Source: a virus
Taxonomy: Duplodnaviria > Heunggongvirae > Uroviricota > Caudoviricetes
Direction: 5' to 3' (one strand)
Length of the DNA: 8,345 bases
Virus record (IMG/VR): IMGVR_UViG_2778261591_000009
Shown one piece after another: positions 1 to 5,655 of the stretch (its first letter is position 1; each line of letters opens with the position of its first letter). Position numbers and translations under genes: made by a program. The notes under the pieces are model-generated. The model saw nothing but the letters and a program-made list of their open reading frames with translations, did not search any database and was not told the DNA's origin.

Positions 1-401
1 TCTTGTATTTTTGTTTCGATAGCGCCAGATCTTTTAATGTCTTTTTCAGCACGATAATATGCCTGATCTGGGTCATACTTAAGAACATTAGGAAAATAGA
101 ACTGCTTCGCACCATATGCATCATAAACAGCCATAGAATGGCCTTGCACAGTTACGAATTTAGCAATCTGTCCGTTATATACCGGATATCCAGCAGCGTT
201 AATGATGATTGGTTGCGAAACAGGAACGTGAGAGCCGTCTTCGTTCTCTACATAAACCGGAATCTGGTTTTCAGGATTTACCGGGTCCGTGTCAATTTTA
301 CCGATATAAATTTTGCCATTGGCAACCGCTTTAAAAGAACGCGCCATAGTGAAAAGTTGCGAAGGCATCGATACGATCACATTGGCTGTAATGTCTGTCA
401 T
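1..401 (-). CDS. Tailspike protein, N-terminal head-binding domain (start codon in window; gene continues beyond position 1)
   Basis: Minus-strand ORF starting at ATG 399-401 (GGAG about 9 nt upstream) and running off the window edge with no stop; it is absent from the supplied ORF track, presumably because it is open-ended. My translation is [121 protein letters not shown]... This matches the conserved N-terminal head-binding domain of P22 gp9-type tailspikes as I recall it, and the resemblance stops after KYDPDQ. Confidence 0.88.
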
Positions 402-533
402 TTAATTTGCTCCAGATACAATGAATCGCCGCAGCGTGGCTACGGTTGGTATTTGTTGCATACCGAAACGGTACGATTGTTGATTTGTACAGTAGGTTTT
501 ACGATGCCATTCCACCCATTTGGTGAGGCATTG

Positions 534-791
534 ATGATGTACAGCAAATACGATGAGGCGCAGTTCCACTTGAGGCTTACGCACGAGTTGCACGCCAAGA
601 TTAAACAGCGTGCAAAAATGAATAACAGGTCTATCAATTCCGAAATTGTGGCTACGATGGAAGAATCACTCTCCAAACCATCACCTGTAAGCGGGTATCG
701 TGATGAAGAAGAGAGGCTGGCCTCATTAATCTCGGAACGAGTAAAAGAAGTTGCGGCTGATATCCTTAGAAAAGAAAAAACCCGCGATTAA
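534..791 (+). CDS. mnt: Mnt-like ribbon-helix-helix repressor (Arc/MetJ fold), 85 aa, second orphan copy
   Basis: Same frame as track ORF 3..791 but starting at ATG 534 (GAGG at 525-528). Protein is MMYSKYDEAQFHLRLTHELHAKIKQRAKMNNRSINSEIVATMEESLSKPSPVSGYRDEEERLASLISERVKEVAADILRKEKTRD. It has the RHH signature (FxLRL beta strand, NxRSxNSEIV helix), and the LSKPSPVSGYR...ERLA tail closely resembles the P22 Mnt C-terminal region as I recall it. The upstream part of the track ORF (3..533) looks non-coding in this frame and is occupied on the other strand by the tailspike start. Stop TAA 789-791 lies in the loop of the terminator hairpin. Confidence 0.8.
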   Translation: MMYSKYDEAQFHLRLTHELHAKIKQRAKMNNRSINSEIVATMEESLSKPSPVSGYRDEEERLASLISERVKEVAADILRKEKTRD

Positions 792-799
792 GCGGGTTT
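778..799. terminator. Intrinsic terminator hairpin shared by convergent genes (strong for the minus-strand ant operon, weaker for plus-strand mnt-like gene)
   Basis: Stem aaacccgc (778-785) pairs with gcgggttt (792-799) around a 6-nt loop. On the minus strand the hairpin is followed by UUUCUUUUC and lies 6 nt after the stop of the 73-aa ORF (806). On the plus strand it is followed by a weaker U-containing tract (aguugguuaguu). Confidence 0.7.
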
Positions 800-805
800 A
801 GTTGG

Positions 806-1027
806 TTAGTTATCAAAAAGTCCGTACGTTTCTTCTTCTTCAGGTGTAAGGGGAAGAATCTCTACTCTATCTATAGATACCTTTTCAATGTACCCATGAG
901 GTCTACTTAAAATTAAAGCTCTCTCATGCCACAGAACTCCAAGAATGTGATACCTCCCAGCATCGCCTTTTACCCTGGCTCTTCCTTTGATTCTTGGCGG
1001 CATAATGCCATATTTTTTCTTTGCCAT
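806..1027 (-). CDS. Hypothetical small protein (73 aa), translationally coupled to the upstream antirepressor-like gene
   Basis: ATG 1025-1027 overlaps the TAA stop (1027-1029) of the upstream gene as TAATG on the minus strand; it is the last gene before the terminator. Protein MAKKKYGIMPPRIKGRARVKGDAGRYHILGVLWHERALILSRPHGYIEKVSIDRVEILPLTPEEEETYGLFDN has a lysine/arginine-rich N-terminus and an acidic C-terminal tail. I do not recognise the family. Confidence 0.55.
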   Translation of the reverse strand: MAKKKYGIMPPRIKGRARVKGDAGRYHILGVLWHERALILSRPHGYIEKVSIDRVEILPLTPEEEETYGLFDN

Positions 1028-1755
1028 TATGCAACATTACTCCCATGAATCAGGTGTTGTAGTGCTTTAACACCTTCCGCATTGTAGCGGAATACTTCCA
1101 CCTGTTTGCTGGAATGCGCAGATTTATCCAGGAAGAACTTACCGTACTGCTCAGTTTTGAGGTTGTTTGCGTTAGCAATGCGACCAATCTTGTTGGCCGT
1201 TACTCCAAGCTGCTCTGCAACCTCCCCTGCTGAGTAGTAATGCTCTTCTATTGCTGGAAGAGGTATTGCATTAAAACCAACGATCGGGTTGATTATGCTT
1301 GCTGCCGCAGTCTGCTTTGCTTCCGGCGCAAGATTTGGCATCAAATCGAACAGATTGGTAACAGCTTCAACCGTCATTTTCAATGTTCGCGCCTGGCGAT
1401 ACTCAACAAGTCCACTCGACGATTTACCGCTTTTAATGTGCGCTTCTTGCATACTTTCAAGTTGGTCTACAAGTGAGCGGCGAACAGCTTTAGATTCACG
1501 AGCAGCCACTCGAAGGGCTTGCTTAATTGACATAACAACTTTTTCAGAAGTTGTCTTGTTTGATTTTTGAACTACGAAAATTTCGTAGTGCTCACCTTCA
1601 AGTTCATCCTTAATGCGTGCAATAAAGTCGTTATTTCGGACTTCTTTTTCCCCGCACTGTCTACGAGCATGATTGACCATCTCTAACAGGTACTGGCTAT
1701 CAATGGTTTTATCCGTGACAACGGATCCGATGTTTGCTACATTCTTAAAAGTCAT
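1027..1755 (-). CDS. Antirepressor-like phage regulatory protein (242 aa), second gene of tandem ant pair
   Basis: Track ORF 1027..1842 trimmed to the ATG at 1753-1755, which is preceded by AAGGAA (plus-strand ttcctt 1762-1767); the longer N-terminal extension has no ribosome-binding site. It sits immediately downstream of the Bro-N antirepressor in the same operon. The C-terminal segment YSAGEVAEQLGVTANKIGRIANANNLKTEQYGKFF...VEVFRYNAEGVKAL looks like a helix-turn-helix region of the kind found in phage antirepressor C-terminal (KilAC/ORF6C-type) domains. The family assignment is from memory and position only. Confidence 0.6.
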   Translation of the reverse strand: MTFKNVANIGSVVTDKTIDSQYLLEMVNHARRQCGEKEVRNNDFIARIKDELEGEHYEIFVVQKSNKTTSEKVVMSIKQALRVAARESKAVRRSLVDQLESMQEAHIKSGKSSSGLVEYRQARTLKMTVEAVTNLFDLMPNLAPEAKQTAAASIINPIVGFNAIPLPAIEEHYYSAGEVAEQLGVTANKIGRIANANNLKTEQYGKFFLDKSAHSSKQVEVFRYNAEGVKALQHLIHGSNVA

Positions 1756-1823
1756 TAGGCATTCCTTATGTGGTAGTAAGGGTGTGACATAGGCCGCCAG
1801 CAGCACACTGGCGGTTTTCTTTT
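1750..1823 (+). ncRNA. Candidate sar-like antisense RNA (about 74 nt) opposite the start codon and ribosome-binding site of the second antirepressor gene, ending at an intrinsic terminator
   Basis: Plus-strand promoter-like elements lie inside the first codons of the minus-strand gene: GTGACA (1715-1720), a 14-bp gap, then extended -10 TGcTACATT (1735-1743). The predicted start is near 1750. A GC-rich hairpin (ccgccag 1794-1800, loop cagcaca, ctggcgg 1808-1814) is followed directly by UUUUCUUUU (1815-1823). On the minus strand the same hairpin is not followed by a U-tract, so it is oriented for a plus-strand transcript. Ends are approximate. Confidence 0.45.
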
Positions 1824-1842
1824 GCGCCGTCCTGTGCGCCAA

Positions 1843-2481
1843 TCAATGAATCCATTCCTCGCCGCGAAGTTTTGCCAGCATTGGCTGAGCGTTCTTTACG
1901 ACAAAATTGTTGGGATCAAGATTCTTCATTTCACGAAGAAGCGATTTCTTGGTTTCTTCTGACATGTAGCGAGTCTCATATGCAATATCGTAAATCTTTC
2001 CTGAAAGCTCAGAACCAATTTGCTTCATTCCAGGGTAGATGTGTTTGCACATTTGTTGACTCTTCTCCATCCACAATTGTAAGTAGCAGAGATTAACCAG
2101 TTCTTCGTCAGTAAACTGTTTTGCAATCGGTGAGCATTCTGCCTGCCGATCCAAAATATCCAGCACCCAGCGGCGGAACTCTTTGGCCTTGGGCGTAGAA
2201 GCAAACATCGCCACCAAGTGAGCGCCTCGGAGTGAGTAAACTCTGACCGATTTGTTACGTAAGCTATTGTTTATTCCGTTGACCTTCATATTGAGGGTCA
2301 ATGACATTGAGTCAGAAAATTCGTCAGCATTACGGGCATAAATTTGGCTGATGGCATCAGTTTTTTTATAGCCGAGAGCCTTAGCTAGTTCGGTGGAGGT
2401 AAACCAGATAGACCCGCCCTCTGTTACAGGGTTAAAAGTGAATCCTTGGAAGTTATAATCTGATTTTGCTACAATATTCAT
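1843..2481 (-). CDS. Bro-N domain antirepressor (Ant-like), 212 aa
   Basis: Track ORF 1843..2565 trimmed to the ATG at 2479-2481, preceded by AAGGAA at 7-nt spacing; upstream in-frame ATGs lack a ribosome-binding site and would overlap arc. The N-terminus MNIVAKSDYNFQGFTFNPVTEGGSIWFTSTELAKALGYKKTDAISQIYARNADEF...VRVYSLRGAHLVAMFASTPKAKEFRRWVLDIL matches the Bro-N pattern (F-F ... W-F ... LGY ... F-RW) that I recall from phage antirepressors. It is the first gene after arc, as ant is in P22 immI. Confidence 0.75.
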   Translation of the reverse strand: MNIVAKSDYNFQGFTFNPVTEGGSIWFTSTELAKALGYKKTDAISQIYARNADEFSDSMSLTLNMKVNGINNSLRNKSVRVYSLRGAHLVAMFASTPKAKEFRRWVLDILDRQAECSPIAKQFTDEELVNLCYLQLWMEKSQQMCKHIYPGMKQIGSELSGKIYDIAYETRYMSEETKKSLLREMKNLDPNNFVVKNAQPMLAKLRGEEWIH

Positions 2482-2556
2482 GTTAGTTTCCTTGAGTACG
2501 GTTACTGACATAGAGGCCCGGTTTGTGTTCGCGCACTTCCGGGCTTCACTATTTTT
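2482..2556 (+). ncRNA. Candidate sar-like antisense RNA (about 75-90 nt) across the arc-ant intercistronic region and the ant ribosome-binding site
   Basis: Two plus-strand promoter candidates lie inside the 5' end of the Bro-N ant gene: TTAAAA (2432-2437) with 16-bp spacer and TATAAT (2454-2459), and an extended -10 TGcTACAAT (2467-2475) with TTGGAA (2446-2451) 18 bp upstream. A hairpin (2513-2521 pairing with 2539-2547, including one G-U) is followed by UAUUUUU (2550-2556) abutting the arc stop codon. The position and size correspond to P22 sar RNA, which is established knowledge. Ends are approximate. Confidence 0.45.
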
Positions 2557-2731
2557 ACTGGGCATTAGCTCTTTCCTCTCTCAGGCTTTTAGCCAGTCGC
2601 TGCACAATCGCAGAGTTGATAGAAATTCCATCCATTTCAGCTACGCGTCTGATCTCCTCCTTCATTCGCGCTGGCAAACGAAGCTGGAAACTCTGACTTT
2701 TACGACCACTGTAAAGAACATCGCTCATCAT
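2555..2731 (-). CDS. arc: Arc-like ribbon-helix-helix repressor (58 aa)
   Basis: Track ORF 2555..2746 with the start moved to ATG 2729-2731, which has GGAG (plus-strand ctcc 2738-2741) 6 nt upstream; the track start at 2746 would abut the operator palindrome with no ribosome-binding site. Protein MMSDVLYSGRKSQSFQLRLPARMKEEIRRVAEMDGISINSAIVQRLAKSLREERANAQ aligns with P22 Arc as recalled (QFNLRWPREV...NGRSVNSEIYQRVMESFKKEGR). It is the first gene of the antirepressor operon and divergent from mnt. Confidence 0.8.
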   Translation of the reverse strand: MMSDVLYSGRKSQSFQLRLPARMKEEIRRVAEMDGISINSAIVQRLAKSLREERANAQ

Positions 2732-2742
2732 CAATATCTCCG

Positions 2743-2798
2743 TCATAATGACATCACCATGATGTCATGACACCATTATGATGCCATTGCTCATAATG
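2743..2798. repeat. Cluster of TCATAATG / CATTATGA repeats in the arc-mnt divergent control region
   Basis: TCATAATG occurs at 2743-2750 and 2791-2798, and its reverse complement CATTATGA at 2774-2781. Each contains a CATAAT -10-like hexamer, two on the plus strand and one on the minus strand, interleaved with the 9-bp palindrome arms. Confidence 0.55.
2748..2768. promoter_or_regulatory. Operator-like perfect inverted repeat ATGACATCA-cca-TGATGTCAT at the predicted start of ant-operon transcripts
   Basis: Two 9-bp arms (2748-2756 and 2760-2768) are exact reverse complements separated by 3 bp. The repeat lies between the candidate Pant -10 and the arc ribosome-binding site, where a repressor would block initiation; in P22 the Mnt operator overlaps the Pant start point. 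The flanks hold further related repeats: TCATAATG at 2743-2750 and 2791-2798, and the inverted copy CATTATGA at 2774-2781. Confidence 0.6.
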
Positions 2799-2802
2799 TC
2801 AA
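2775..2802 (-). promoter_or_regulatory. Candidate Pant-like sigma-70 promoter for the arc-ant operon (-35 TTGACA, 16-bp spacer, -10 CATAAT)
   Basis: On the minus strand there is a perfect TTGACA (plus coordinates 2797-2802), a 16-bp spacer, then CATAAT (2775-2780). The predicted start is near 2767-2769, inside the palindrome, about 36 nt upstream of the arc ATG. A divergent plus-strand candidate for mnt (ATGACA 2767-2772, 19-bp spacer, CATAAT 2792-2797) overlaps it, giving face-to-face overlapping promoters as in P22 immI. Confidence 0.5.
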
Positions 2803-2851
2803 TATGATGCTACTGTGTTTTTTATTGCTCATATGCCTTGCGAATAAGAAA

Positions 2852-3103
2852 ATGTCAGAAAAAGACGAATCAAATTTCATAGAAAGATTTACGGTTAGAA
2901 TGCCTGACGGCATGCGTAGTGCTATTGCGGAAAGGGCTAAACGAAACGGTCGATCTATGAACTCAGAGATAGTTCAAATTCTTGAGGATGCGTTATCATC
3001 TGACGTCTCATCAGTAGACAAATCATTAGATCTTAAACAAATAAAATCTTTACTTGATAAAATTTCCAACGAGTTACTGGATAGAATCCCAAAAGACACA
3101 TAA
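2852..3103 (+). CDS. mnt: Mnt-like ribbon-helix-helix repressor, 83 aa (positional mnt)
   Basis: Track ORF 2804..3103 trimmed to the ATG at 2852-2854; the 16-aa upstream extension MMLLCFLLLICLANKK is hydrophobic and implausible for a repressor. Protein MSEKDESNFIERFTVRMPDGMRSAIAERAKRNGRSMNSEIVQILEDALSSDVSSVDKSLDLKQIKSLLDKISNELLDRIPKDT. The N-terminal half matches the Mnt/Arc RHH motif (P22 Mnt ...FRMPMEVREKLKFRAEANGRSMNSELLQIVQDALS as recalled), and the C-terminal half is heptad-like, consistent with a coiled-coil oligomerisation tail. It is transcribed divergently from arc, as mnt is in P22. The region is AT-rich. Confidence 0.8.
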   Translation: MSEKDESNFIERFTVRMPDGMRSAIAERAKRNGRSMNSEIVQILEDALSSDVSSVDKSLDLKQIKSLLDKISNELLDRIPKDT

Positions 3104-3153
3104 CAAAACATTATCATCCGGTGTTCTGCTCAAAACTAAGGAGTGGCTACTCA

Positions 3154-3792
3154 ATGAAAAAAATAGATATATATAGCGATACATCAGCCTATGTCATAGG
3201 CTCATTGGGTTTTTTAATTTTTTTTGTTTGGCAGTACCAGTCACTATCTCCAGGATGGCGATTTTTGGGGATGTCTTTGATATCACTTGGTGCAGGAATA
3301 GCAACGCAGGTGTTGATGTATCTCTTTAATGGATGGCTCTCAAAAAGAGTTGAGAAAAAAAGAGCTACTTCAATATGTAGAAGCCTAGCTATTCCAGAAG
3401 ACTCTACAGATCAGGATGATATTGCAAAATGTTGGCGGTATATGATTGCAAGATACTCAAATGAGTTACTGGCAAACAGACTGTCCGACTTAATCGGGAT
3501 CGTAGTTACCTCTGTTGGAACAATCATCAGTATAGGGATATCAATTTGGTATGTCGGGATGATTGTCTATTTTGTTTGGAATAGAGACTTCAATGAACCT
3601 TCCCTTCTTTTTATACCTTTATTTTTCAGGGTATTAGCATTCATATGTGAGTTATTGCTCTCTTTTTTCTGCAATGTTTTGTTCAACAGATACCCAGGTG
3701 AAGCAAGAAAGTTTAATAAAAACTATGATGAGTTAAGGAGAACAGATCCTTTTCTATCAAGCAAAGAGTTCCGCGATTCCATTCGCAATTAA
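3154..3792 (+). CDS. Polytopic inner-membrane protein (212 aa) at the sieA position; candidate superinfection-exclusion protein
   Basis: Track ORF 3121..3792 trimmed to ATG 3154-3156, with AAGGAG at 3138-3143. The protein has at least four hydrophobic helices (AYVIGSLGFLIFFVWQY, FLGMSLISLGAGIATQVLMYLF, LIGIVVTSVGTIISIGISIWYVGMIVYFVW, LLFIPLFFRVLAFICELLLSFFCNVLF). The gene is very AT-rich (about one-third GC in sampled stretches against about 45-50% in the late genes). It lies between the ejection gene gp16 and mnt on the mnt strand, which is the slot P22 uses for sieA. The functional call is positional; I cannot confirm sequence similarity to SieA from memory. Confidence 0.7.
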   Translation: MKKIDIYSDTSAYVIGSLGFLIFFVWQYQSLSPGWRFLGMSLISLGAGIATQVLMYLFNGWLSKRVEKKRATSICRSLAIPEDSTDQDDIAKCWRYMIARYSNELLANRLSDLIGIVVTSVGTIISIGISIWYVGMIVYFVWNRDFNEPSLLFIPLFFRVLAFICELLLSFFCNVLFNRYPGEARKFNKNYDELRRTDPFLSSKEFRDSIRN

Positions 3793-3813
3793 CAACATCC
3801 ATGACATCAACCC

Positions 3814-5655
3814 TTAGCGATCAGTTGCATCATTGGCAAGTATTGGTCTGATGGCATTTGCGGCGTTATTCAGCGCTCTTTCATAGGCTGGTGTTCCTGC
3901 TTTGGTGTTTGCCAAACGTAAGAGAGCATTCCTTGCTGCTTTAGACTCATACAAACGCATCATTGCACCAAAGCCAGCCTCAAGCCCCATTGATACGCCA
4001 AGAGTCGCAGTTGCGCCAATCGTCCTTATCCGGTTGGCTTGCGATTGCCCCGTCTGAGTTACTACATTTGCGGTGTCTGACCTTGCTGTTTGCTGTAGAA
4101 CTTCATGAAGAGAATCAAGCTCTTTCATGTGCTTTCCAGAAAAAATAGTGTTGTAAATTTCACCACCTGACTGAGATTTCAGCTTATTAACTTCAGTGAT
4201 GAACTTGGCTGGAGAATCACCGGCCTTTTCCGCTATTTTGCTGACGTAAGCTGCACGCATAGCATCTTTCCCTTTATCATCCAATGCGCTCCAGATTCGT
4301 TTCACGTCAGATGGTTTTCTGCTTAATACAACGGTATTTATAAGTTCAGGACTGGCTTCACTGCTTGCCTTGTTGAGCTTGTTAGCAATGTTTTTATTAA
4401 GCACCTTATTATAAACGTTTGCATAATCTGAATTTGCTTTAAGGTATTTTGCTGCGTCTGATGCACCGAGGTTTTTAGCAACTGCGTTACGAAGGTCTTT
4501 TGACATTGCATTCTCTACCATATTGGTAGCTGCTTTTGCCTGGTTGGGGAAGACCATAGAATCTCCCTGAACATTAGATCTAAATGCTGTTCTGTGCTGA
4601 CGCAAGAGATCAAACGTAACATCCAAATCAGTTGCAGGGTTTGCTAATTCTTCACGTAGGTTACGCAAGGATGTAAGCAGGCTTTGATTGGCTGAAGTCC
4701 CAAGCCGTTCCTGTCTTGCGATCGCTGTATTCAGAGCATTCATGGTATTTGTGGTATCAACTGCGGCATTACCCATTTTATTGGTGACGTCATTGATAAC
4801 AGCGCCAGCAGCATCCTTCCGCCCCCTTAACGTGGTGGTCAGAGATTTCACCACATCATCAGGGTTGTACTCACCAAAACGGTCAAAATAATTGCTTACC
4901 AGCTTACTACGCGTTGCATATTGCTCCGCTCGCTTTGAGCCTGTCCCGAGCAAAGCCCCCTCGGCATCCTGAGTAAGGCCGCGAGTGAAAGCATTTTTCG
5001 GCGGGATAACATCAGATGTCATTGGTGTCACGCCCATCGATTCTGAAGTGGCAATTTTCTTCGCCACTTCTGGCGCAATATCACCTTTTATAGCCGTTAT
5101 TCCACGCCCTATTCCCTTTGCTGCTGCGGAAAGAACACCCTGAGCGGCAAGGTTAACTCCGGCATTTTTAGCTGCATTTTGTGCGAAATCGCCTTTCTGA
5201 TTTGCGGCCTCTGCCAGTGATCCAATAGCCATGCTTCCTGCCGTTCCAATTCCTGGAACTAAATACCCGCCAATTGTTTCTCCAGCTTGAGCGTAGGGGT
5301 CTGTCGGTCTGTCTACTGGACGATAAACATCATCCAAAACTTTTGGCCCACCAAGCCCCTGACTGATTGCATTAATCAGACTTGCGCCACCCTGCAATAC
5401 GTCAAATGGTATGTTTACCAGACCACGACCAGCCTGTTCTGCAATTTGCCCTGCACTTTGACCACCAGTGAGCCAATCGCCAGCTTGTTGCATCAATGAT
5501 GGTTCTTCCCGTGTTGGTGCATTATTGGCCTGATTAACTGTTTGTTGCTGAACAGCCTGACCAGCAAAATACTCATCAATGGCGGTGCCAATATCTTCGG
5601 TGCTCGTACCATCAGGAAAGGTAAATGTCTTACCGTTTGCAGTTACTTTCATCAT
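3814..5655 (-). CDS. Ejection (DNA-transfer) protein, P22 gp16-like, about 613 aa
   Basis: Long minus-strand ORF with late-gene composition. Its tandem ATGs at 5653-5655 and 5650-5652 overlap the TGA stop of the upstream gene (ATGA-type coupling). It is third in a run of 224, 490 and 613 aa that matches the size and order of P22 gp7 (229), gp20 (471) and gp16 (609) immediately upstream of sieA/mnt. The sequence is Gly/Ala/Gln-rich with no obvious enzymatic motif. The assignment rests on synteny and size. Confidence 0.8.

Follow-up and report, generated by a model that had tools for sequence, protein, structure and literature searches.

The immI region of phage P22 is a textbook case of control in several layers, with two repressors and one antisense RNA. 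In the immI region of phages P1 and P7, the c4 antisense RNA controls icd-ant1/ant2 and is processed from the same transcript, and Ant1 and Ant2 of P1 are in-frame products of one gene. The present analysis concerns an immI-type region at positions 402 to 3103 of a stretch of 8,345 nucleotides (nt; hereafter the window) from a virus of the Caudoviricetes (IMG/VR record IMGVR_UViG_2778261591_000009). An earlier note on this DNA had described an expanded P22-type switch with two Mnt-like genes, Arc, two antirepressor-class genes and two antisense units. This composition was confirmed, and all listed open reading frames (ORFs) and both antisense units were found at their positions with the ORF list, Pfam, PHROG and a consensus scan. 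The components, which had been regarded as duplicated, are not copies of each other: Ant1 and Ant2 showed no similarity (E 2.2), and the match between Mnt1 and Mnt2 (45%) covers 38 residues only, the common part being the ribbon-helix-helix domain. The region is probably a mosaic "ant moron" of three separately inherited modules (A, 2446-3103; B, 806-1842; C, 402-799). With P1 and P7 it would share, by analogy, an antirepressor operon held down by a small antisense RNA; a sequence relationship is not expected.

The window corresponds, in reverse orientation, to the end of the late operon in an E. coli prophage of the P22-like (Lederbergvirus) kind. Homologues of the P22 genes 14, 7, 20 and 16 occupy the minus strand; next come a plus-strand SieA-like gene, the studied region and the start of the tailspike gene. 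The region thus lies between the homologues of gene 16 and gene 9 (tailspike), which is the immI slot of P22, and all ORFs of the window are intact. With P22 it shares, beside the slot, the divergent orientation of mnt and arc-ant, face-to-face promoters, an operator on the start of Pant, ribbon-helix-helix repressors, a sar promoter in ant codons 2-4, the terminator stem GA(A/G)GCCC..GGGCTTC and a SieA gene nearby. It differs from P22 in that Ant1 has a BRO-N domain instead of the P22 N-terminal domain, that Mnt1 has only the DNA-binding domain in common with P22 Mnt and that the operators differ, those of Mnt1 being tandem. Furthermore, the window adds an unrelated ant-class cistron with a non-homologous antisense unit, a short gene (orf73) and a second mnt of different specificity beside the tailspike gene.

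The name "ant moron" for this slot downstream of no fixed gene set goes back to Villafane et al., who counted 10 gene contents in 16 P22-like genomes (PMC2629481). For the phages L, ST64T and ST104, a mnt-only moron has been described (PMC8022706, PMC2629481). As in these phages and in VSe13, a lone mnt homologue stands in the window beside the tailspike gene and divergent from it, with no arc-ant between them; Mnt of VSe13 is 96% identical to Mnt2, Mnt of L and ST64T only 49%. Unlike in the L/ST64T type, however, this orphan mnt is accompanied by a complete immI switch whose specificity is different. The window therefore pairs an orphan mnt of that type with a full immI of other specificity, inserted upstream of it. 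A precedent for two Mnt-like repressors is CUS-3, a P22-like phage of E. coli whose annotation lists two mnt genes and an ant gene between gene 16 and the tailspike gene, although its mnt genes stand in tandem on one strand and it has one ant, no arc, no Ant2 and no orf73.

The boundaries of the modules are among the points that the comparisons establish, together with the gene identities, the homology to P22, and the conservation and covariation of RNA and operator elements. Escherichia phage JEP4 (MT740315) shares positions 402-2561 of the window at 94% identity, which covers both antisense units and the genes mnt2, orf73, ant2 and ant1. Where the window has Mnt1 and Arc, however, it encodes a C2-like repressor of 189 amino acids and an ORF of 57 amino acids (L001, L165; 14133-15047) upstream of the same sar-ant1 cassette, which argues that the repressor/promoter module is exchangeable. 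JEP4 genes are annotated as 'Rha protein' and 'KilA protein'. The similarity among Ant2 loci ends a few bases past the T-run of the second antisense unit, whatever gene lies upstream (Ant1-type, P22-Ant-type or other). Of the loci retrieved by way of Mnt2 or Ant2, 125 have Mnt2 next to the start of the tailspike gene, with a gap of about 132 base pairs (bp) and 65-100% protein identity, and many of these loci contain no homologue of ant1 or ant2. In three loci (L004, L005 and L070) a complete P22-like mnt-arc-ant follows orf73 at the place of Mnt2. These loci contain three ant-class genes each (Ant1-like, Ant2 and P22-like Ant).

Among 5426 complete E. coli genomes, 25 contained the 2.7-kilobase region with 95-100% identity across 80% or more of its length, and 441 contained parts of it. 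Among the 80 IMG/VR loci retrieved with Ant2, 17 showed the full pattern. The earlier note had allowed that this architecture might already be common and characterised; it is indeed common, as these genomes, JEP4 and the IMG/VR loci show, but literature searches revealed no functional study of the layout, only general descriptions of ant-moron variability. Some strains with the region are bovine or O111 isolates, and in E. coli O111:H- 110512 (NZ_AP019761.1) the IS3-family element IS1203 is inserted in the otherwise 100% identical region.

Module A parallels the annotated immI of P22 in layout and hexamers, and its upper part consists of the following features:

2852 to 3103, plus strand: Mnt1, Mnt-like ribbon-helix-helix repressor (Pfam Arc PF03869, E 1.4e-17)
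2781 to 2808, plus strand: candidate mnt1 promoter ATGCCA-16-TATGAT, face to face with Pant (consensus scan)
2775 to 2802, minus strand: Pant-like promoter TTGACA-16-CATAAT, reading into arc (consensus scan, 11/12 positions; best promoter of the region)
2748 to 2768 (ATGACATCACCATGATGTCAT) and 2767 to 2787 (ATGACACCATTATGATGCCAT), no strand: putative tandem Mnt1-type operators, covering the -10 and start region of Pant
2555 to 2731, minus strand: Arc homologue (Pfam Arc PF03869, E 1.1e-11; 42% identical to P22 Arc)

As in P22-type immI, mnt1 and arc-ant1 are divergent and both mnt1 and arc encode ribbon-helix-helix proteins. Mnt1 does not resemble P22 Mnt over both domains; the match (57% identity) is limited to 37 residues of the N-terminal part (residues 13-49), and the C-terminal helical tail is unrelated. 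The Mnt1 equivalent of E. coli UTAK-1 (L002, 8451-8603, corresponding to window 2852-3004) is flagged by RefSeq as an incomplete pseudogene, 'missing C-terminus'. The Mnt1 ORF (83 amino acids) is intact, as long as P22 Mnt and identical in many loci. Arc comprises 58 amino acids if it starts at 2731; RefSeq places the start at 2728, and the ORF could open at 2746. Most likely, Arc starts at 2731 or 2728.

The first Mnt1-type operator is a near-palindrome of 21 bp, from which the second copy differs by two mismatches, and the motif had 4 matches compared to 0.03 expected. In relatives with the same Arc recognition strand (SQSFQLRLP) but a different Mnt1 strand (DRFNIRLP instead of ERFTVRMP), the site is replaced at the same position by TTGGTTCTAGAACCAA. 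Because the site changes with the recognition strand of Mnt1 while that of Arc stays constant, 2748-2787 was assigned to Mnt1 as its putative operators on the arc-ant promoter. Three direct repeats of 25 nt with spacings of 19 and 26 bp extend across the Pant/Pmnt1 region (2746-2815). The third of them (2791-2815), which overlaps the -35 hexamer of Pant, could be a further operator, possibly that of Arc.

Module A would thus function as a canonical immI switch. In a lysogen, Mnt1 would be made, bind the tandem operators and keep Pant shut; upon infection Pant would fire, and Arc would then repress it. Between ant1 and ant2, neither a minus-strand promoter nor an efficient minus-strand terminator was detected by consensus scan and inspection of the sequence. 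The simplest inference is therefore that arc, ant1, ant2 and orf73 are driven by Pant as one operon.

The lower part of the switch consists of ant1 and the first antisense unit:

1843 to 2481, minus strand: Ant1, antirepressor homologue (BRO-N PF02498 and P22AR_C PF10548, E 5e-14)
2446 to 2475, plus strand: Psar-like promoter TTGGAA-18-TACAAT with an upstream TG; its -10 lies in ant1 codons 2-4, as in P22
2482 to 2556, plus strand: sar homologue, predicted antisense RNA 1, with a 5' hairpin followed by the terminator hairpin GAGGCCCGG..CCGGGCUUC

The C-terminal domain of Ant1 is 32% identical to that of P22 Ant (BLASTP, E 8e-9), and Ant1 is a putative antirepressor. The existence of the first antisense unit, formerly placed at 2432-2556, was supported, but the conserved -35 hexamer is TTGGAA at 2446 and not the one at 2432. 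P22 sar is annotated at 15021-15090; its promoter is embedded in the opening codons of ant, and it terminates at the stop codon of arc. Unit 1 shows the same features, since it is antisense to the arc-ant junction, has its promoter in the first ant codons, is predicted to form two hairpins and ends with an intrinsic terminator at the arc stop. This terminator hairpin (2513-2547, followed by a T-run) was overlooked by the consensus scan, as its loop is too long. The 5' hairpin loop carries an anti-Shine-Dalgarno sequence. Window positions 2432-2565 can be aligned to the sar stretch of P22, with the conserved blocks TTGCTA(C/T)A(A/C)TATTCATGTT and TTACTGAC and the terminator arms GA(G/A)GCCC..GGGCTTCA, and the two-hairpin fold is that of P22 sar (z-score -5.4 compared to -5.3 for P22).

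The comparison of relatives points in the same direction. In 38 distinct upstream regions of Ant1-like genes (37-100% protein identity), the -35 TGGAA, the -10 TACAAT or TACACT and the terminator are kept, and the leader diverges. When 13 variants including P22 were folded singly, all of them gave a 5' hairpin and a terminator hairpin, with both stems kept by compensatory changes (GAGGCCCGG/CCGGGCTTC, GAGGCCCAG/CTGGGCTTC, GAAGCCCC/GGGGCTTC and GAGACCCGG/CCGGGTTTC). Folding was done per sequence; RNAalifold on a MAFFT alignment, in which the left terminator arm was misaligned, gave no structure. On sequence grounds, unit 1 is a diverged relative of sar beyond the reach of the curated Rfam model. 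Like sar, its RNA, started within the first ant1 codons, would pair with the ribosome-binding site of ant1 and block translation. Positions 2479-2550 (plus strand) also gave a weak full-length match to the Rfam family SymR (RF01809, 18.6 bits), which probably reflects no more than the shared shape of a hairpin plus terminator.

Module B contains the second antirepressor-class gene with an antisense unit of its own:

1027 to 1755, minus strand: Ant2, protein of antirepressor class whose function is unproven (full-length match to PHROG 1726, 'anti-repressor', E 6e-100)
1715 to 1743, plus strand: antisense promoter 2, GTGACA-17-TACATT with an upstream TG, within ant2 codons 4-14 (consensus scan)
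1750 to 1823, plus strand: predicted antisense RNA 2, about 72 nt with putative ends, terminator GCCGCCAG..CTGGCGG and T-run
806 to 1027, minus strand: orf73, ORF of 73 amino acids (PHROG 4977, function unknown)

Antisense RNA 2 spans the start codon and the Shine-Dalgarno sequence of ant2, and its terminator was placed by the consensus scan at 1791-1817, ahead of the T-run. The pattern GTGACA-17 nt-TGCTA-A-T, the leader and the hairpin GCCGCCAG..CTGGCGG with its T-run recur in about 47 of the 50 distinct sequences upstream of Ant2-like genes. The -10 variants TACATT, TAAATT, TAAAGT and TATATT all follow the form TAnAnT, and the residue encoded there is Val, Leu or Ile, specified by the codons GTA, TTA and ATA. 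This constrained codon choice is the pattern that selection on an antisense promoter would produce. With unit 1, unit 2 has only a stretch of 14 nt around the -10 hexamer in common, and the terminators differ. To judge from these comparisons, unit 2 is not a member of the sar family and only analogous to sar.

Module B is probably a mobile cassette which consists of an antisense terminator, a leader, ant2 with the embedded antisense promoter and, optionally, orf73. As the next cistron of the arc-ant1 operon, ant2 would be transcribed from Pant, and its translation would be throttled by its own, non-sar antisense RNA. The start of orf73 overlaps the stop codon of ant2 as TAATG, which supports translational coupling to ant2; the earlier note had listed the ORF of 73 amino acids as coupled. 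Only 8 related clusters of orf73 were found, the gene is absent from many Ant2 loci, and its low-confidence structural model gave no fold match.

The designation of Ant2 as an antirepressor is reasonable, yet unproven, and is based on its fold class and its genomic position. In the AlphaFold model (predicted local distance difference test score 72), long helices accompany an alpha/beta domain at the N-terminus and a helix-helix-strand-strand-helix domain at the C-terminus, the latter being a MerR/Par-like winged helix-turn-helix in the predicted structure. Its full-length neighbours among the predicted viral structures of BFVD are labelled antirepressor, KilAC or KilA (E 1e-9 to 1e-4, with low template-modelling scores). 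In 73 of the 80 Ant2 loci the gene is located directly downstream of another ant-type gene on the same strand, and in three loci (L073, L154 and L155) Ant2 alone occupies the ant slot beside a Mnt-like gene.

It is quite possible, though not probable, that Ant2 is instead a DNA-binding regulator or accessory protein of the KilA/Roi/Bro class, acting for example on host or competitor DNA, which rides in the ant operon while the antisense RNA silences a harmful product. Ant2 had no sequence match in Pfam, NCBIfam or the PDB, where Pfam at E ≤ 10 gave only HTH_31 (E 0.13), and showed no similarity to P22 Ant. The family comprises about 1992 proteins; a Pfam domain is missing from all of the 120 that were listed, nearly all of which bear the name 'hypothetical'. 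As the best structural match is a DNA-binding winged helix and there is no characterised homologue, Ant2 may not be an antirepressor. Homologues were also detected in Stx2a-converting phages (L075-L079 and L166, the latter being Stx2a_F451 4509-5243), in the early-left operon near int and beside other antirepressor genes. These homologues have a different N-terminus and lack the antisense unit, and this location in an early-left operon likewise favours a function other than antirepression. Ant of Phi24B, the Stx-phage antirepressor that was studied experimentally, is a P22AR_C-type protein from outside the Ant2 family (PMC3064807), and that study was therefore set aside as evidence on Ant2. 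Against this alternative stand the labels of PHROG 1726 and of the BFVD neighbours, the three loci in which Ant2 is the sole occupant of the ant slot, and the predicted control of Ant2, which is of the same kind as that of ant.

Module C comprises the second mnt gene and the leader of the tailspike gene:

534 to 791, plus strand: Mnt2, full-length Mnt homologue (Pfam Arc PF03869, E 4e-15), with ribbon-helix-helix and C-terminal SKPSPVSGYR region
476 to 504, plus strand: candidate mnt2 promoter TTGTTG-17-TACGAT, ungapped against P22 14798-14826 (Pmnt); -10 kept in relatives
460 to 474, no strand: candidate Mnt2 operator ATACCGAAACGGTAC, a near-palindrome aligned gap-free to the Omnt position of P22
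778 to 799, no strand: bidirectional terminator between the convergent mnt2 and ant operon, strong for the minus strand
425 to 450, minus strand: tailspike-leader hairpin CCGUAGC-CAC-GCUGCGG, homologous to the sequence upstream of P22 gene 9 (z-score -3.1)

Mnt2 is 47% identical to P22 Mnt over 73 amino acids (residues 7-79, E 6e-22), which includes both domains and the motif SKPSPV(S/T)GYR. The gap between Mnt2 and the tailspike gene has two parts, of which one is a leader homologous to P22 16155-16203 and the other aligns gap-free to the Pant/Omnt/Pmnt region of P22. In five relatives whose Mnt starts with MGRDDPQFNLRLP (P22-like N-terminus RDDPQFNLRLP), the operator reads AGACCACAGTGGTCT and is close to the P22 operator. 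The two stretches which had been proposed for mobility-shift assays, 2743-2802 and 402-533, both contain operator candidates.

The suggestion that all of these components form a single layered anti-immunity circuit, in which both Mnt proteins control the ant operon and two antirepressors, each with its RNA brake, are directed at different repressors, is considered unlikely. Both ant-class genes lie in one presumed operon, each has an antisense unit, and the combination recurs in many prophages. In addition, trans-acting antirepressors of the Gifsy type are documented to cross-induce co-resident prophages in Salmonella (PMC3121763). With these, the concept of action across co-resident prophages, which the earlier note had proposed for the two Ant proteins, might be shared by analogy, but they are small, LexA-controlled and located at another genome position (PMC3121763). 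Mnt2 itself does not fit such a circuit. Its operator is absent from the Pant region; it occurs once in the window and once in the 39-kilobase JEP4 genome, beside its own gene, and control of Pant by Mnt2 was rejected for this reason. Conversely, the Mnt1 operator motif does not occur in 402-533. Furthermore, Mnt2 is tied to the tailspike gene in the 125 loci mentioned above, with or without ant genes, and the components are not duplicates. Module C is thus more probably a mnt2 gene that is independent of the switch and has a promoter and an operator to itself; Mnt2 would regulate its own gene and not control ant1 or ant2.

That Mnt2, orf73 and unit 2 are decaying leftovers of recombination without present function is very unlikely, for although the region is one of high genetic flux with degraded genes, with ten types among sixteen genomes (PMC2629481), orf73 is lacking in many Ant2 loci and has a narrow distribution, Mnt1 is marked as partial in one genome and one strain carries an insertion element in the locus, every ORF of the window is intact, the promoter of unit 2 is kept through constrained codon choice, the promoter and operator of mnt2 are conserved and covary with the protein, and Mnt2 is intact in relatives (gapless alignments in 130 of 131 loci) with a ratio of nonsynonymous to synonymous substitutions (dN/dS) of 0.01-0.33 against the window copy at dS up to about 3, which indicates strong purifying selection.

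As an independent module, Mnt2 probably acts in trans on incoming phages with the same operator, or on transcription that enters the tailspike gene. Taken together, the data might be read as follows: antirepressor-class genes travel as antisense-gated cassettes (terminator, leader and gene with embedded antisense promoter), which can be stacked behind any repressor/promoter module; Ant2 represents a new antirepressor family with a non-sar RNA, aimed at the repressors of other prophages; and the orphan Mnt2 is an immunity-only module against superinfecting, antirepressor-bearing phages of matching operator type, or a gate on tailspike transcription. This joint reading is tentative and, as a whole, somewhat unlikely to hold in all its parts.

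Beside the points already given for Ant2, several results weigh against the reading of the region as a mosaic of three modules. The promoter-like matches as a class were not above chance (8 compared to 6.0 ± 2.7 expected in the consensus scan). Because the class is not enriched, the scan alone proves nothing, and the reality of the sites rests on the comparative evidence. The Rfam model of sar (RF00262) reached only 18.1 bits on window 2482-2550, with a gathering score of 43 and an E-value of 0.22 in a search of 181 nt; this alignment spans model positions 1-68 of 68, and the P22 control reached 97.8 bits. It emerged only in the narrow search, as a search over window 1-3800 gave nothing at E ≤ 1. 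For unit 2, no Rfam family was found, including RF00262. Its terminator stem is nearly invariant with one double change, so that covariation support is thin. Most variants of antisense RNA 2 give two hairpins, but its fold has only a modest advantage over shuffled sequences (z-score -2.0). An operator could not be assigned to Arc, since the intergenic sequences of two locus classes differ strongly even though the recognition strands of their Arc proteins are identical. Finally, the equivalent of P22 Pant that faces the tailspike gene is degenerate (ATGGCA .. CAAATC) and hence offers Mnt2 no clear target. A tailspike-directed promoter over the Mnt2 operator was considered and rejected, as the scan gave no minus-strand promoter in 402-533.

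The region is flanked by the following genes:

3 to 401, minus strand: tailspike gene, N-terminal head-binding domain (Pfam Head_binding PF09008, E 3e-67), running off the window
3154 to 3792, plus strand: SieA-like superinfection-exclusion membrane protein (PHROG 7745; 28% identical to P22 SieA, E 4e-24) of the same moron

The tailspike piece comprises the first 133 codons and is 72% identical to P22 gp9. The hairpin in its leader is conserved in 65 distinct relatives. P22 (L164) carries the sequence around this hairpin twice (16045-16070 and 16155-16180), and the zone is annotated as 'boundary sequence' in the CUS-3 record. In the predicted fold of the window, the tailspike Shine-Dalgarno sequence in the leader pairs with RNA from the Mnt2-operator region. 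The gap between Mnt2 and the tailspike gene varies in some loci. In L149, a fragment of ant persists there. Six loci (L096, L010, L086, L021, L092 and L013) have a gap of 683 bp instead of 132 bp. In this gap lies an intact ORF of some 180 codons, which has the orientation of mnt2 and is inserted immediately behind the first codons of the tailspike gene; by eye, it resembles a homing endonuclease of the HNH/AP2 type. Remnants of arc-ant, which had been considered for these longer gaps, were rejected in view of this inserted ORF.

The ant slot of natural E. coli prophages hence appears as a stack of exchangeable cassettes, at least one of which carries a second antisense regulator, for which no prior description was found, and a lone mnt gene under strong purifying selection persists in it without a visible target. 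Of note are this second antisense regulator, the unproven activity of Ant2 and the role that the orphan Mnt2 serves. Work on Ant2 would give a function to a family of about 2000 members, almost all of which are named 'hypothetical'. If Ant2 is an antirepressor of a different target range, such stacks would set which co-resident prophages are cross-induced in polylysogens, and if the orphan Mnt2 indeed acts in trans, it would provide a simple defence against induction.

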